This document shows positions 37,901-43,900 of a stretch of 64,000 bases of DNA, one piece after another; the first letter of the stretch is position 1, and each line of letters starts with the position of its first letter. Source of the DNA: Escherichia coli. Its GTDB lineage: Bacteria > Pseudomonadota > Gammaproteobacteria > Enterobacterales > Enterobacteriaceae. Position numbers: made by a program. Location of the stretch: NCBI RefSeq assembly GCF_017348835.2, contig NZ_CP071375.1. One strand, given 5' to 3'.

Positions 37901-40900
37901 GCATCGGCGACCCAGTAACCTTCGGTAAATGCTGGCGTTCCCACCGCGCCGTCTGAACCTTTATGCATACTGCCGATATAGCGTGCGCCCGCGCCAACAG
38001 AGATATCGTCGGTTGCCTGATATTGGCTCCATAAGGTGAAGGCGTGCTCCGGGGTATACGGCAGCGATGAGGAACCATCCTGGGCAACATCTTTGCCGTT
38101 TTTGATGGTTGCTTTTTGCTGGGTATAGCCGCCAATCACCTGCCACGCGGGAGTGATATTCCCGGCCACGGATATCTCATAGCCTTCGACGCGTTTCTTA
38201 CCGTATTGCGAGTAAGTTCCGTCATCATTTTGCTCAACTTCATTTTCGATATCAGTACGGAATAGAGCGGCGGTGAGCAACAGGCGTTTATCCAGAACCT
38301 GCCATTTGGTGCCAATCTCGCTGGTGTTGGCTTTTTGCGGTTTAAAATCGGTGCGGTTGGCACTGTTACCGCTGCCAGACTGCGCAAGGGCGAAGTTGTT
38401 GCCGCCCGGAGGCTGCTGGGAAACGGCATAGTTAATATAGACATTGCCGTTTTCCGTCAGGTGATACAGCACCCCGGCTTTCCAGTTCACCAGATTGCCC
38501 GACTTGGCGGTGTCGACGGTGGTGACCGGAGAACCTTTTGCCACACCAACTGGGCAGGTGATGGCACCGCGTCCGCTGCCGCCGCAGGCGGTGGCACTGT
38601 CATATTCAGTATGATAATTATCCAGACGGATCCCGCCGTTCAGCTCAAAATCACGGGTGATTTGCAGCGTATCGAAGGCGTAAATTGCGAAGGTGTCCGT
38701 CTGACCATTGGCGTTTGCGCCGTTGCGCGTCAGGCCGCCGGGATGAATGCTGCTGTCAGGATGATAAATATTTACCGCAGGTAACGTCACCGGATTAACG
38801 CCGTAGTTAGTCTGCGTTTCACGGGTAAATTCCACGCCGGTACTGACATCATGACCGATAGAACCGGTATAGAACGTCGAGGTCAGGTTGGTCTGGTTGG
38901 TGAGAATTTTATTACTCACATCTTTGGTATTCGCCGTGCGTGACCACGTCCAGCTATTCACATCGCTGGTGGGCTGGGTAATATTCGACGCCCCACCCAT
39001 AATCGCCGTCATCAGGTAATCCTGCTTCACGCGCGACCAACGGGTAGTGTTGCGAATGGTGGTGTTATCGTTGATGTCGTGCTCAAAACGCATGGTGGCG
39101 GTGTCGGTGGTCGAATCGTCGTAATCGGAATCCGTGCCGTAAAAGTTATGCGTATCAACTTTTCCGGAATGATTCAGGGTCGCCGTTCCTGCAGATGGGG
39201 CAGAATAGCCCGGCAAACCGATGGTTGGAATGCCGCCGTCTGGCGTGTTGTGCTGGGTGACATGCAGATAATTAAGATACAAACGATTCGCTGTACCAAG
39301 GCCAAAAGCGACAGAAGGGGCGATGCCGTAACGCTCATTTTTGACTTTGTCGCGTCCGGCATCGTGCGTTTTTTCGCCCATCACATTCAGGCGCACCGCG
39401 GTGGTATCACCAATGACCTGATTGACGTCCAGCGTGCTGCGGCGGAACCAGGCGCTGCCAATACTCGCGGAGGCGTCAATGCCCGAATCATTGCGCGGCT
39501 GCTTGCTGATCATATTGATCGAGCCCGTCGGTGCGCTGCGCCCGTAGTCGGTGCCGGACGGCCCTTTAATCACTTCGACCTGCTCGGTATTGAAGGTGTC
39601 GCGCGAGACGCTGCCGATATCGCGAATGCCATCAATATAAATGCTGTTAGAGGTATCGGCACCACGCATATAAATGGCGTCGCCAGTGGTGGAGTTACCG
39701 TTCTCACCCGCAAAAAACGCACCCACGCCGGGGTAATGCCAGTCAGTTAAGCAACTGACTGGCTCTTTTTCGGGGCTGTGGGGTATTTCCAGGGCCTCTC
39801 CTTTACCACTCTCGGGAAGGCCCTTTCCCTTCTTGTCGGTAATTTCACAAGTTGTCCCATACTTGCAAGATCGCGCATCAGCTCCGGTATACGTCCCGGT
39901 GAAGCGCCCTGCAATGTCATCAGCATTCTCATCACCATTCCGCATGATTCTGAGAAGCTCAGTTGATTTGGCCAGTAACCTTTCAGATGTTCCGCCATTT
40001 TAATCATCTGATATCTCACCAGATTATAAGCCAGTAAGACACCCCACAGCTCTTGCTCCACAAGCTCAGGCTTTTTACTTCTCAGCGTCAGCCTGCTCAG
40101 TTGCATCGTCTGTTTTATCTCCCTGTATCCCAGTTCGATTTCCCAGCGATGACTGTACAGATCCGCCATTTCTCCTCCGGGGAAGCGCATGGCGTCCGTC
40201 ATCGACGTCAGCAGATGGCAGACTTTTCCTTTGCGCGTCACGGTCAGCAGGCGGGCTGTCACCTCATTTCCCAGTCCCGGCCACTTTTTTCGTGCCTGCG
40301 GGCTGGTTTTCAGCTTCACCAGATGATCGCCTTTACCCAGTTTTCTGATCTCTTCATATTGCGCTCCCTTTCTGAGAGGGATCATCCAGTGGCGGTGTTC
40401 TCCCGCCAGGCTCCAGGCATTTAACAATCCCAGTGAGTAATAACCTTTATCCATTAACGTCAGAGTGTTATCGCCGGTTTGTTCTATAAGTTGCTCAGCA
40501 AGCTCATTTTCGCTGTTCTTCATCGTGCCGAAGGCTGCAGCCGTCAGCAGATGGCTGGTCAGTTCCATCTGGCAGACCATTTTGACCTGCGGGTAGAGCG
40601 CCGGGGTCCCGGCATGTGTCTGGCGAGGGAAGGCTGCATCGTTCTCTGGTGTATCCGGTGTGCGCCAGAACACACCATCGATGGCCAGCAGGGTCAGGCC
40701 GCACCAGTGCGGATGCGGCGTGGCGTTATGCCAGAGCTGCGCTGTTTTCGTGAACACGCGGCGGACAGCCTCACTTCCCAGGCGCTGGCGGGCCTGAATA
40801 ACAGCACTGGGGGCAACGAAGGTGCGATTGCCCGGCAGCATGATGTCCAGGCGATTCACAATCTGGTGAAGAGGTTCTTTACGCTCAAGCGCCATGCCAA

Positions 40901-43900
40901 CAATACACCAGACCATCATTTCGAGGGGAAGACGGCGCTTGCGTAGCGTTACAGTACCTGATTCGGCAAGGCAACGAGAGATGAGTTCGGGGTCGAGGTA
41001 ATCTCCCAGAGAAGTCAGTGGGTTACGCAGAGAATCGTAACGGGATACCAGATCAAGAGCCTGTCCAATGTGCATAAAAAAATCCGGAAACGAGTGAGCG
41101 TTTCCGGATTCTTACACAGCCACTGGATCGGTCAACTGATCCTTAACTGATCGGCATTACCCACGCCGGGGACGTTTTTGAGCGCGTCGGTAAGGTTGGT
41201 TGCGCCCTGATCTTTAATCACTTGTTCAGAAATCACCGTCATCGTGCGGGTAGTATCCGCTACCGGACGCGAGAATTTCGGATCGGCAGATTGTTGTGGC
41301 GCATAAAGCGAAGGCGTTGATGCTTCGACAACCAGCGTGTCATCCGCGTTAGTTTGCCCTTCGGCAGCGAGTGCCTGAGCCACAGGCGTGATGCCAATAC
41401 AAAGACCGGCAAAGAACGTGAGCGAATGAAATTGTCTGGCAGGGAAATTGCGATTGTTTTCCATTTTGCAGGTGACTTTTTCTTATATGTTGAAATTTTC
41501 ACTGCCACGAGAAAGCCTCTCTGCGGATGCGATGCCGCTGTTAATCTCGTGATAGCGTTCGTGCAAGTGATAATAGTTTTGATAAGCATTATCACTTGGC
41601 GCGATTTTCTATCACCCATTGCGCGAAAAAGAAATACATTTATTTACATTGCGTTCATATTTGATGTTTTTTGATTACAAAACAGGCGAAAACTGCATCC
41701 AGAGGCGAATGCAGTTACGTTGGTGGGGTTATTTGTAGATGGTTGCAGTACCGAACATCTGGTCATTTCCGCCTGCGGAATTAATGACATAACCTTTCGC
41801 GCCTTGCTCGCGCGCTTTTTCTGCCAGTTTATCCTCCAGATCGCTTAGGTTTGATGCGCCAGTTGCCGAAACGGTACCGGCGGGCCGTAGCTGACCGCTG
41901 TCCAGGTTACTCATCGGTTGCGCGGCATAAGCCGTGAGAGAGATTCCGCTCAGGACGGTGGCAATCAGTAGTGTGAGGCACTTTTTCATAATGGCATCCT
42001 CATAAATACAACGGGTAGTGCCTGATAAGTGTAGGTCGCTTGGGCGATGAAAATGACGCAAAAAATTGACAGAGGTACGCTTATTTTTTGAACGATATAT
42101 TTTTACAAAATAAGACAAATCAATGACATGCATAATGCTGATTTTTATGATGAATTGCCATAAACCATAGCCATGTTAAGGTTTTGGGGAATGATAAACG
42201 CAGCCAGATATTTACCCTGTCGCGTTATGCGGGTATCTTACGCCGCTGCTTAAAGGAGAATGCTATGTCCGCCCAGAAACCGGGGTTGCATCCGCGCAAC
42301 CGTCATCACAGCCGCTACGATCTCGCCACGCTTTGTCAGGTCAATCCTGAACTCAAGCAATTCCTCACGCTTACACCCGCCGGGGAGCAAAGCGTAGACT
42401 TTGCCAATCCGCTGGCGGTGAAGGCGCTCAATAAGGCGTTGCTGGCCCATTTTTACGCCGTAGCGAACTGGGATATCCCCGACGGTTTTCTCTGCCCGCC
42501 AGTACCGGGCCGGGCGGATTATATTCATCACCTTGCCGATTTACTGGCTGAAGCAAGCGGAACAATTCCAGCTAATGCCAGCATTCTGGATATCGGCGTT
42601 GGTGCGAACTGTATTTATCCGCTGATTGGCGTACATGAATATGGCTGGCGTTTTACCGGTAGTGAAACCAGCAGCCAGGCGTTAAGCAGTGCGCAGGCGA
42701 TCATCAGTGCTAATCCGGGGCTTAACCGCGCCATTCGTCTGCGTCGGCAAAAAGAGAGTGGGGCGATTTTTAACGGCATCATCCATAAAAACGAGCAATA
42801 CGACGCGACCTTGTGTAACCCGCCATTCCACGATTCCGCTGCTGCGGCACGGGCAGGTAGCGAGCGTAAACGCCGTAATCTGGGGCTGAACAAAGACGAT
42901 GCACTGAACTTTGGTGGCCAGCAACAGGAGTTGTGGTGTGAAGGCGGTGAAGTCACCTTTATCAAAAAGATGATTGAAGAGAGCAAAGGCTTCGCGAAGC
43001 AGGTGATGTGGTTTACCTCGCTGGTATCTCGTGGTGAAAACTTACCGCCGTTGTATCGTGCTCTGACGGACGTGGGCGCGGTGAAGGTGGTTAAAAAAGA
43101 GATGGCCCAGGGGCAAAAGCAGAGTCGCTTTATTGCCTGGACCTTTATGAACGACGAGCAGCGCCGCCGTTTTGTCAATCGCCAGCGTTAAAGCGTTGGC
43201 TCCCCCGGCGGCAGCGGTTCAGCCGGGGGCGCGCCCGGAGCAGGCAGCACCTGATAAGTCTGCACTGGCGCGCGAACGCCCGCCAGGTCGAAATGTTTTT
43301 TCACCTGGCTGTCGAGGGCAAAGCGTACCGTCCACTGTTTGAGCGGCAGCGTAGTGAACGAAACACGCAGTGTAAACGCGGTATTGCTTAAGCCGACAAT
43401 CCCGGCAAAATTCGGTTCACCAATAATCAGCCCGCGAATTTCTTCGTTTTCCATTAATTCCGCTACCGCATCTTTCAGTGCCTGATTGGCTTTATCAGCA
43501 TCTTCATGGCGATCAACATCGTAGTTTGCCACTACCGAACCAATGCCGCGGACAAAGTTGGCAAAGGTGGTAATCGAAGACCACGGAATGATGTGGTACG
43601 CCCCGGTATCCTGGCGCACGCCCACGGAGCGAATCGACATCCGTTCCACAGTGCCGGTCAACGGCCCGATAGTCACCAAATCTCCAGTGTTCATGCCGTT
43701 TTCAAACTGAATAAATACCCCGGTGATAATATCTTTCACCAGCGTTTGCGAACCAAACGAGATAGCCAGACCTAATGCCCCGGCACCTGCCAGCAATGGC
43801 GCGATATTGACGCCGATTTCCGACAACACAATCATGATGGTGATGGTACTGATAATCACCGCCAGCGCGTTACGGAACAGCGTCAGCAGGGTACGCGTAC

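Follow-up and report, generated by a model that had tools for sequence, protein, structure and literature searches.

A complete IS4 within fiu of Escherichia coli, at a site occupied in both orientations in other genomes

The IS4 family is defined by a DDE triad together with a Y-(2)-R-(3)-E-(6)-K signature in the transposase (PMC2266710). IS10 and IS50, from Tn10 and Tn5, are its biochemically characterised members and have a transposase of this kind, as IS4 does; they leave 9-bp duplications and follow looser target rules, whereas IS4 leaves duplications of 12-14 bp, the length following the spacing of the A/T arms. The cut-and-paste hairpin mechanism is a feature of IS10 and IS50 and may be extended to IS4 itself by analogy. 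IS231A, another family member, shares with IS4 a strong insertion specificity and conserved target arms outside the duplication, although it belongs to another subgroup and its ends and target sequence are unlike those of IS4. For IS4, the founding member of the family, the target consensus is reportedly AAA-N20-TTT, and the classical duplication is about one helical turn, 11-13 bp. The IS4 of K-12 (insG; NC_000913.3 4502090-4503515) is 1426 bp long, and encodes a single 442-aa transposase; its target, which lies between yjgZ and nanX, is a weak one and is duplicated as ATCTTGGTTCTG.

We analysed a 64-kb stretch of E. coli DNA (the window), in which an earlier examination, hereafter the sequence-only reading, had described a complete IS4 inserted in fiu with a perfect target-site duplication. 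Neither the element nor the gene is new, and RefSeq annotation of publicly available genomes from this lineage already records the insertion. Taking the whole of the evidence described below, we are highly confident that a full-length, competent-looking IS4 has nullified fiu at a recurrently used site that mimics a terminator.

The element and the interrupted gene

The only IS4 copy in the window occupies 39734-41159 on the minus strand, with its transposase gene and fiu reading in the same direction. Like the K-12 copy it is 1426 bp long (TAATGCC…GGCATTA), with both 30-nt termini identical to those in K-12, and it differs from the annotated MG1655 element at 15 of 1426 nt (98.9% identity). 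PE164 and F2_81 have copies that are 100% identical to it, and its exact 30-nt transposase-distal end is found at 67 loci in genomes of other Enterobacterales. The terminal inverted repeats are 18 bp long and paired at 16 of 18 positions, the transposase-proximal one (…CTTAACTGATCGGCATTA) lying at 41142..41159 and the distal one (TAATGCCAGTCAGTTAAG…) at 39734..39751. The transposase gene, a homologue of insG (39747..41075, minus strand), encodes 442 aa plus a stop, again as in K-12, with no internal stop. Its product contains the Pfam domains Nterm_IS4 (PF13006, E 1.6e-32) and DDE_Tnp_1 (PF01609, E 1.9e-31), the Y307-R310-E314-K321 signature, and D133 (LLAIDG) and D209 (LMDKG), these two residues being assigned by motif position. 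In length, repeats, near-identity to the reference, a single reading frame with both domains, DDE/YREK residues, a 12-bp duplication, and a target made of an A-run, a GC-rich core and a T-run, the element agrees with IS4, and the identity, termini, size and transposase given by the sequence-only reading all stand.

The 12-mer CCCACGCCGGGG abuts both IS termini, its left copy at 39722-39733 and its right copy at 41160-41171, and occurs only these two times when both strands of the window are scanned; the chance of a 12/12 match at fixed positions is about 6e-8. A repeat finder gave a duplication of 13 bp (39721-39733 and 41159-41171), which we rejected. The thirteenth nucleotide is a coincidence: the IS ends in A (…GGCATTA), which is also the base preceding the left repeat. 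Since IS4 copies with different flanks also end in GGCATTA, the duplication is 12 bp, as had been claimed. Duplications at the other IS4 copies that we read are 12-14 bp.

Deleting IS4 and one repeat copy in silico restores a 2283-nt open reading frame of 760 codons plus stop, confirming the in-frame reconstruction proposed earlier; residues 34-760 of the restored protein align without gaps to residues 1-727 of the solved chain 6bpm, with six substitutions (E = 0). The gene order ybiX-fiu-mcbA-rlmF in the annotation of F2_81 and PE164 also identifies the gene as fiu, a region found in 5,419 of 5,426 complete E. coli genomes. In the window its coding sequence is not intact, with the break following residue 102, within the plug domain. 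The 5' fragment (41160..41464, minus strand) encodes residues 1-102, comprising the signal peptide and the start of the plug domain, and its frame continues for 8 codons within IS4 (NADQLRIS) to a stop at 41132. The 3' fragment (37744..39733, minus strand) runs as far as residue 760 and the stop codon and is now a pseudogene piece. In F2_81 and PE164 the gene is annotated as two pseudogene fragments, with a TonB-dependent receptor plug domain fragment for the 5' piece and 'catecholate siderophore receptor Fiu, incomplete, missing N-terminus' for the 3' piece. Since what remains after the insertion is an N-terminal stub of 102 residues and a C-terminal piece without a leader, this is a null fiu allele. 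An open reading frame of 733 aa (39945 to 37744) starts within IS4 in frame with fiu, but we rejected it as a functional fusion and regard it as a by-product of listing reading frames, because its frame is not that of the transposase and it has no signal peptide.

The arrangement is best explained by transposition of IS4, presumably by cut-and-paste, into codons 98-102 of fiu, which encodes a TonB-dependent catecholate-siderophore receptor, with a 12-bp staggered cut whose subsequent repair generated the flanking CCCACGCCGGGG copies. Siderophore-conjugated drugs such as cefiderocol, and catecholate microcins, enter through catecholate receptors that include Fiu, and in this lineage, which lacks it, susceptibility and iron acquisition could be affected. 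Misassembly is frequent at IS elements, and the junction might be an artefact in which a repeat was collapsed or misplaced into fiu. However, different laboratories on different continents have independently obtained complete genomes with identical junctions and duplication, and neither a perfect duplication nor in-frame restoration of fiu is a product of misassembly; we consider an artefact hardly credible.

Recurrence at the fiu site

IS4 is present at exactly this site, in the same orientation, in about 42 of the 5,426 complete E. coli genomes (matches to the left junction in a single piece), and in inverted orientation in about 31 further genomes (matches to a synthetic inverted junction), with the site intact in roughly 98.7% of genomes. 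This recurrent hotspot, used in both orientations, had been missed in the sequence-only reading. All 14 same-orientation loci sampled have the insertion at the identical position, and 12 of them have an intact 12-bp duplication; of three inverted loci read, two show this 12-bp duplication as well, and the third, whose IS is frameshifted and 1425 bp long, reads 13 bp. Other fiu::IS4 alleles (ECONIH1, M160133, O121 201805972 and DLI.6n, and the inverted VR50 and UMNF18) have the same insertion point as the window and, in nearly all loci read, the same 12-bp duplication, although their IS4 sequences are 12-19 nt away from that of the window and their flanks 1.7-3.3%.

These copies might in principle all go back to one ancient insertion that was passed on vertically or carried between lineages by homologous recombination. 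The shared position of all sampled same-orientation copies, with the duplication intact in most, would be consistent with this, as would the existence of clonal groups among the carriers (M160133/ECONIH1, APEC16-1068/HS13-1, and window/F2_81/PE164). The two orientations at one site are not what a single event would give, however, and the carriers have at least nine flank haplotypes, with IS4 alleles that do not track the flanks. A single identical 1.2-kb flank haplotype is found with both orientations and three IS4 alleles, and MEI4BO-21 and DLI.6n have 0 differences in the flanks and 12 in IS4. In the 1.2 kb directly adjoining the IS, haplotype groups are separated by 20-39 nt (1.7-3.3%), which argues that the allele did not move with short recombined flanks, and the large majority of intact sites would demand very many precise excisions after one ancient insertion. 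We regard that scenario as already largely refuted, and its remaining probability as very small. The fiu::IS4 alleles in other E. coli are independent events. Given this homoplasy, with recurrence across the species and in both orientations, fiu::IS4 is unfit as a clonal marker.

Target preference and selection

The duplication is flanked by an A-run arm, AAAAAA (39712..39717), four nt beyond its left copy, and by the symmetric partner, the T-run arm TTTTT (41175..41179), three nt beyond its right copy, giving a full target of AAAAAAcgca[CCCACGCCGGGG]acgTTTTT. On the fiu coding strand, the codons for …L-K-N-V-P-G-V-G-A-F-F… read AAAAAC-GTCCCCGGCGTGGGTGCG-TTTTTT, which is an A-run, a GC-rich core and a T-run. 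In these A/T arms and GC-rich core, the fiu target resembles a terminator in its base pattern; folding the left target half plus the duplication (39700-39733) gave no structure above shuffled controls (z = 0.2). We built a target matrix from 58 non-redundant IS4 left flanks in other Enterobacterales, with fiu left out, and found A at positions -16 to -24, C at -12, -10 and -9, and G at -4 and -1. The A-run arm of fiu agrees with the A-rich block of this matrix (-16 to -24), as do the E. coli sites, and the matrix places the fiu insertion at the right position and with the right duplication length. Among eight further sites that we read, six in E. coli and two with both ends in other genera, six have an A-run, N3, a 12-14-bp GC-rich core, N3 and a T-rich stretch. 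The survey thus provides a data-derived picture of the IS4 target, an A-run, N3, a 12-14-bp GC-rich core, N3 and a T-run, which is terminator-like, and it shows that coding sequence can mimic such a target by accident. Insertion at this position of fiu was not random; its likeness to the preferred sequence, which resembles a bidirectional terminator, would account for the repeated independent hits.

This modelled preference is not the full explanation for the frequency of insertion in fiu, because on the matrix fiu ranks no higher than 10th among the loci of the 62.6-kb window without the IS (about 3.9 SD above the mean), and the best locus has only three carriers. That locus is the ompX-opgE terminator (50921-50934), 11 kb away, which scores 34.7 against 15.5 for fiu; its three genomes with IS4 are those in the 64%-coverage rows of a four-block junction query, the other rows being uninterpretable. 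At the second-best predicted site (31525-31537), the same query gave no 64%-coverage row, and thus no carriers.

It is possible, although we put this forward only tentatively, that loss of Fiu is positively selected, for example as an escape from catecholate microcins, colicins, phages or siderophore-conjugated antibiotics that use Fiu for entry, and that IS4 is the commonest breaker of the gene. The roughly 73 carriers at fiu, compared with the few at a better-scoring terminator and none at the second-best site, would be consistent with this, as would the decayed fiu::IS4 copies (frameshifts, a 17-bp deletion, a mutated duplication) that have been kept in place, indicating that the null allele persists. 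On the other hand, a matrix derived from other genera may not reflect the real preference, the contrast could result from counter-selection of insertions at the ompX-opgE terminator rather than from favouring of those in fiu, the carrier counts take in clonal relatives, and our literature search found no report of IS4-disrupted fiu in E. coli. On a more far-reaching and speculative reading, codons 98-102 of fiu would be among the most heavily used IS4 sites in E. coli, with well over ten independent hits in both orientations. The same reading would have this site hold about 1.3% of all IS4 copies in complete genomes, and would have fiu occupied some 20 times more than the better-matching, presumably neutral terminator 11 kb away. 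The excess would then reflect selection repeatedly favouring the loss of Fiu, with the preference of IS4 for terminator mimics supplying the mutation.

Mobility, lineage and end structures

The element was earlier called potentially still mobile, and we agree, on indirect evidence, that it probably is: no catalytic motif is damaged, and sister genomes have a copy of identical sequence elsewhere, with a different duplication. In PE164, an IS4 with 100% identity to that of the window lies between bamD and raiA, with its own 14-bp duplication, CAGCCCTTGAGCTG. Checked for inactivating mutations against K-12 InsG, the transposase has four substitutions, P85T, N157T, G304A and R326L, none of them within the catalytic motifs. 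The alternative is that the element is a relic, complete in structure but immobile. P85T and N157T are absent from every other IS4 allele compared, the PE164 copy in fiu already has one more substitution (window position 41009), and there are frameshifted fiu::IS4 copies in other lineages, all of which would fit a relic. The reading frame, both Pfam domains, the DDE/YREK residues and both ends are all intact, however, the same allele is present unchanged at a second locus with a separate duplication, and the IS4 allele of the window is found at six places per genome in the lineage, so that we consider inactivity rather unlikely and favor a mobile element. For the identical bamD-raiA copy, mobilisation in trans or homogenisation by gene conversion is possible in principle.

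The insertion is common to the window genome, PE164 (China) and F2_81 (Australia), a pig-associated lineage; the window differs from PE164 at 3 of 50,000 nt and from F2_81 at 8 of 42,426 nt. Since all three have the insertion, it predates their split, and the allele is fixed in this lineage (PE164, F2_81/F2_18C). The insertion had been described as recent, which is supported by the undiverged duplication and by an IS4 allele specific to the lineage, but recency cannot extend to an origin after the three genomes separated. The fiu-region haplotype of the window was found elsewhere in the collection only in PE164 and F2_81, and none of the 5,426 genomes has this haplotype without the IS, the next best match being 98.8%. 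F2_18C has been typed as ST302, and six IS4 copies were counted in F2_81 (CP043542)/F2_18C, in a report where the fiu disruption goes unmentioned (PMC6985150).

Both ends of the element have features that may bear on transcription. At the transposase-proximal end, a consensus scan found TTGACC-16-AAGAAT with a TG (41108..41135, minus strand), a candidate transposase promoter. Directly 5' of the transposase AUG, an inverted-repeat search and RNA folding identified a strong hairpin followed by U7 (41078..41113, minus strand; -27.6 kcal/mol, z = -7.1). A single T to C change in the 3' arm of this hairpin removes an upstream TTG at which RefSeq annotation starts other alleles, giving 448 aa there and 442 aa in the window. 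By analogy with IS10 and IS50, a structure at this end of IS4 could shield the gene from outside transcription, and the hairpin would probably stop or occlude transcripts that enter from the fiu promoter. The hairpin and U-run probably also lower transcription of the downstream ybiX from that promoter. At the distal end, an 11-bp hairpin with a T-run (39738..39763; -18.7 kcal/mol, z = -4.8) is terminator-like on the plus strand.

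Structure of the insertion and loss of fiu

The element interrupting fiu is IS4. It fills 1426 bp between two copies of the 12-mer CCCACGCCGGGG, at 39722-39733 and 41160-41171, which are the only two occurrences on either strand of the window; its termini read TAATGCC…GGCATTA, and its 18-bp terminal inverted repeats match at 16 of 18 positions. A 13-nt duplication proposed by a repeat finder was rejected: the element's last A is the same base as the one upstream of the left repeat, and, because IS4 copies with other flanks end in GGCATTA, the true length is 12 bp. Removal of the element and one repeat copy from fiu leaves a 2283-nt open reading frame of 760 codons plus stop, and the restored Fiu aligns without gaps to the solved structure 6bpm (query residues 34-760 against chain residues 1-727, six substitutions). 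The sequence-only reading had described an IS4 in fiu with a perfect 12-bp duplication and an in-frame gene of 760 codons once the element is removed; every feature was found where it had been placed, and the interpretation is supported, with its "recent" qualified below. The element, the gene and the fiu::IS4 insertion are already known from public annotation. What we add is modest, namely a recurrent hotspot in fiu used in two orientations and a data-derived description of how IS4 chooses its targets.

The insertion lies in codons 98-102 of fiu (…KNVPGVG|AFF…), within the plug domain. Upstream of the IS, 102 residues of Fiu are encoded and run on into 8 residues from the IS; the downstream fragment is without a signal peptide. 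Both are marked as pseudogene fragments in the RefSeq records of the sister genomes; thus fiu is null in the window. Lower expression of the co-directional downstream gene ybiX is plausible. A 733-aa open reading frame that runs from 39945, inside IS4, into fiu does not share the frame of the transposase and was not taken to be functional.

The sole open reading frame of the element itself encodes the 442-aa transposase (41075..39747, minus strand). Over its 1426 nt the window copy shows 15 differences from the annotated IS4 of K-12 MG1655, and 4 of the 442 residues are changed (P85T, N157T, G304A and R326L), of which G304A and R326L are common among the other IS4 alleles compared. Pfam detects both the IS4 N-terminal domain and the DDE domain, both aspartate motifs (LLAIDG and LMDKG) are intact, and the Y-(2)-R-(3)-E-(6)-K signature, as defined for the IS4 family (PMC2266710), is found as Y307/R310/E314/K321. 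The transposase-proximal IS end carries a promoter-like site, TTGACC-16-AAGAAT (41135-41108, minus strand), whose -10 is overlapped by a strong hairpin (-27.6 kcal/mol, z = -7.1) followed by U7 directly before the transposase AUG. If IS4 behaves as IS10 and IS50 do, RNA that reads in from beyond the element, in this case from the fiu promoter, would fold the full hairpin and be terminated or translationally blocked, while transcripts from the promoter of IS4 itself would begin within the hairpin and escape.

Lineage and age of the insertion

The window differs at 3 of 50,000 nt from E. coli PE164 (pig, Nanjing) and at 8 of 42,426 nt from F2_81 (CP043542; pig, Australia), the strain of CP043542 having been described as F2_18C and typed as ST302 (PMC6985150). 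Both genomes carry the same fiu::IS4 insertion, which is therefore fixed in the lineage and intercontinental. The haplotype of the fiu region was found only in these two among 5,426 complete E. coli genomes; after these the highest identity is 98.8%, in a match free of the IS, and the same genomes yielded no sister of the same haplotype with an empty site. To that extent "recent" must be tempered, as the insertion is not confined to one strain. It still looks young: its two repeat copies have not diverged, and the IS4 allele is peculiar to this lineage.

Of the three differences between the window and PE164, only one falls in fiu::IS4, at 41009 in the transposase gene (G in the window, T in PE164), and within PE164 the protein accession of the fiu copy differs from that of a copy between bamD and raiA; together these indicate that the IS4 copies have been diverging since insertion. 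The bamD-raiA copy is 100% identical to the window copy but is flanked by a 14-bp duplication of its own, CAGCCCTTGAGCTG, which makes it the best available evidence of recent movement of this allele. IS4 occupies six places in PE164 and six in F2_81, and six IS4 copies have been reported for CP043542 (PMC6985150).

Recurrence of IS4 in fiu and its target preference

A 400-nt probe across the left junction, counted where it matched at full length in a single piece, found fiu::IS4 in the same orientation in 42 of the 5,426 complete E. coli genomes, and a synthetic probe with the IS inverted found 31 further genomes at 80% coverage or more. All 14 same-orientation loci that we read are at the identical position. 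Three inverted loci were read: VR50 and UMNF18 have the same position and the same 12-bp duplication, and strain 2-1 has a frameshifted IS of 1425 bp with a duplication that reads as 13 bp, an ambiguity linked to a 1-nt difference. Some of these insertions are decaying: the IS4 copies of elppa5, AR_0077 and 2-1 are frameshifted, and the left duplication of elppa5 is also mutated. RMDEC465 (locus L016), a genome with 31 IS4 places, has CGGCAATGTGCC in place of CCCACGCCGGGG as the 12 bp at its right junction, after which fiu resumes normally; an exchange between IS4 copies reaching into the flank is possible.

Neither one ancestral insertion nor the spread of one fiu::IS4 allele by recombination can account for the pattern of flanks, orientations and IS4 alleles. 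Haplotype groups differ from one another by 20-39 nt (1.7-3.3%) in the 1.2 kb adjoining the IS; one identical flank haplotype (DLI.6n, SW070917, MEI4BO-21, VR50 and UMNF18) carries both orientations and three IS4 alleles. MEI4BO-21 and DLI.6n show no flank differences in about 6 kb and 12 differences in the IS; ECONIH1 and DLI.6n have identical IS4 and 131 flank differences. From the sequences of 20 carrier genomes examined, including the window, we estimate at least 13 independent insertion events.

Alignments of the junction probe by BLAST extended 20-30 nt beyond the IS end into unrelated loci, showing that IS4 flanks resemble one another. The fiu target reads AAAAAA cgca [12 bp] acg TTTTT, and the others are as follows: AAAAAAA cgg [CCCCAGAAGGGG] ccg TTTAT between tdk and adhE, AAAAAA cgc [14 bp] gca TTTTT downstream of eno, CAAAA cgg [14 bp] ccg TTTTTTT between bamD and raiA, AAAAAA gag [12 bp] cac GTTATT in ydeE, and AAAAAAAA cat [13 bp] atg ATAAAT in a permease gene of IAI39. 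A scan of species-representative genomes located the exact 30-nt IS4 end at 67 loci (L025-L091), almost all in Enterobacterales, with no Escherichia record in the list. Kosakonia oryziphila alone contributed 16, and Budvicia, Silvania, Buttiauxella, Yersinia, Photorhabdus and others were represented; the end also turned up on one contig of Chryseobacterium and one of an Oscillospiraceae MAG, apparently through contamination or transfer.

The 58 non-redundant outside flanks from these loci share A at -16 to -24 (up to 50 of 58), G at -13, C at -12, -10 and -9, and G at -4 and -1. This agrees with AAA-N20-TTT, said to have been given as the IS4 target consensus by Mayaux et al. in 1984 and by Mahillon and Chandler in 1998. 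Many of the sites are evidently bidirectional Rho-independent terminators. Duplications are 12-14 bp long, their length following the distance from A arm to T arm, and cuts usually fall 3 nt inside each arm, which suggests that the transposase takes its position from the arms.

A symmetric matrix built from the 58 flanks, with fiu excluded, was scored on 62,562 positions of the IS-less window. The fiu site is the 10th-best locus (15.5, against a mean of -19.0 and SD of 8.8), and the matrix predicts the right cut position and the 12-bp length. The arms on the coding strand are K-N codons (AAA AAC) and F-F codons (TTT TTT) around GTC CCC GGC GTG GGT GCG; judged by its sequence, this stretch of fiu is an accidental terminator mimic.

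Target preference may not be the whole explanation. The top match in the window, the ompX-opgE intergenic terminator (AAAAAAtc[CGCCTCTCGGGGCG]gaTTTTTT, 50921-50934, score 34.7), is empty in the window, and just three other E. coli genomes have IS4 there, with both orientations represented (ECamp52; CH4796 and NN5); a junction query of the complete E. coli genomes found no IS4 carriers at the second-best site. Thus IS4 is about 20 times as frequent in fiu as at a better-scoring nearby site. The matrix may capture the real preference of IS4 incompletely, or insertions in the ompX-opgE terminator may be counter-selected. A third possibility, less likely than not, is that selection favours loss of Fiu, since catecholate microcins and siderophore-conjugated drugs can enter through it.

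Other insertions and features of the window

In three genomes (23CRST047, 23CRST049 and STEC17-190), IS4 is found instead in the mcbA-fiu intergenic region, with fiu intact. We read 23CRST047 directly (locus L011): IS4 is just downstream of mcbA, with the duplication GTTACGTTGGTG (window 41714-41725). The other two show the same split-match pattern, and their fiu is annotated as intact. This site is about 550 bp from the fiu hotspot and matches the target consensus poorly. On the other side of fiu, IS421 is present between ybiX and fiu, in both orientations, in O121 201805972, 23CRST047 and SW070917 (loci L010, L011 and L012), at GGGGCCTGCGCCCC (window 37721-37734), a GC-rich palindrome in the fiu terminator. 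There is no IS421 in the window. The ybiX-fiu intergenic region looks like another recurrent IS target.

Between rhlE and dinG (about 27279-31281) are genes for a 561-aa hypothetical protein and the type III effector EspX2 (espX2), cargo that is presumably island-like and absent from K-12 at the same position. Next to ybhB and the bio operon, positions 1-1883 hold effector cargo according to the PE164 annotation: a DUF1076 gene (1-332) and an EspJ-family type III effector gene (1231-1883), both frameshifted, together with two small hypothetical genes. This is probably a prophage edge. Rfam matches above the gathering score are a molybdenum-cofactor riboswitch upstream of moaA (11865-12009, plus strand), naRNA4 (CssrE; 36083-36153, minus strand) and ES036 (CssrF; 57569-57611, minus strand).
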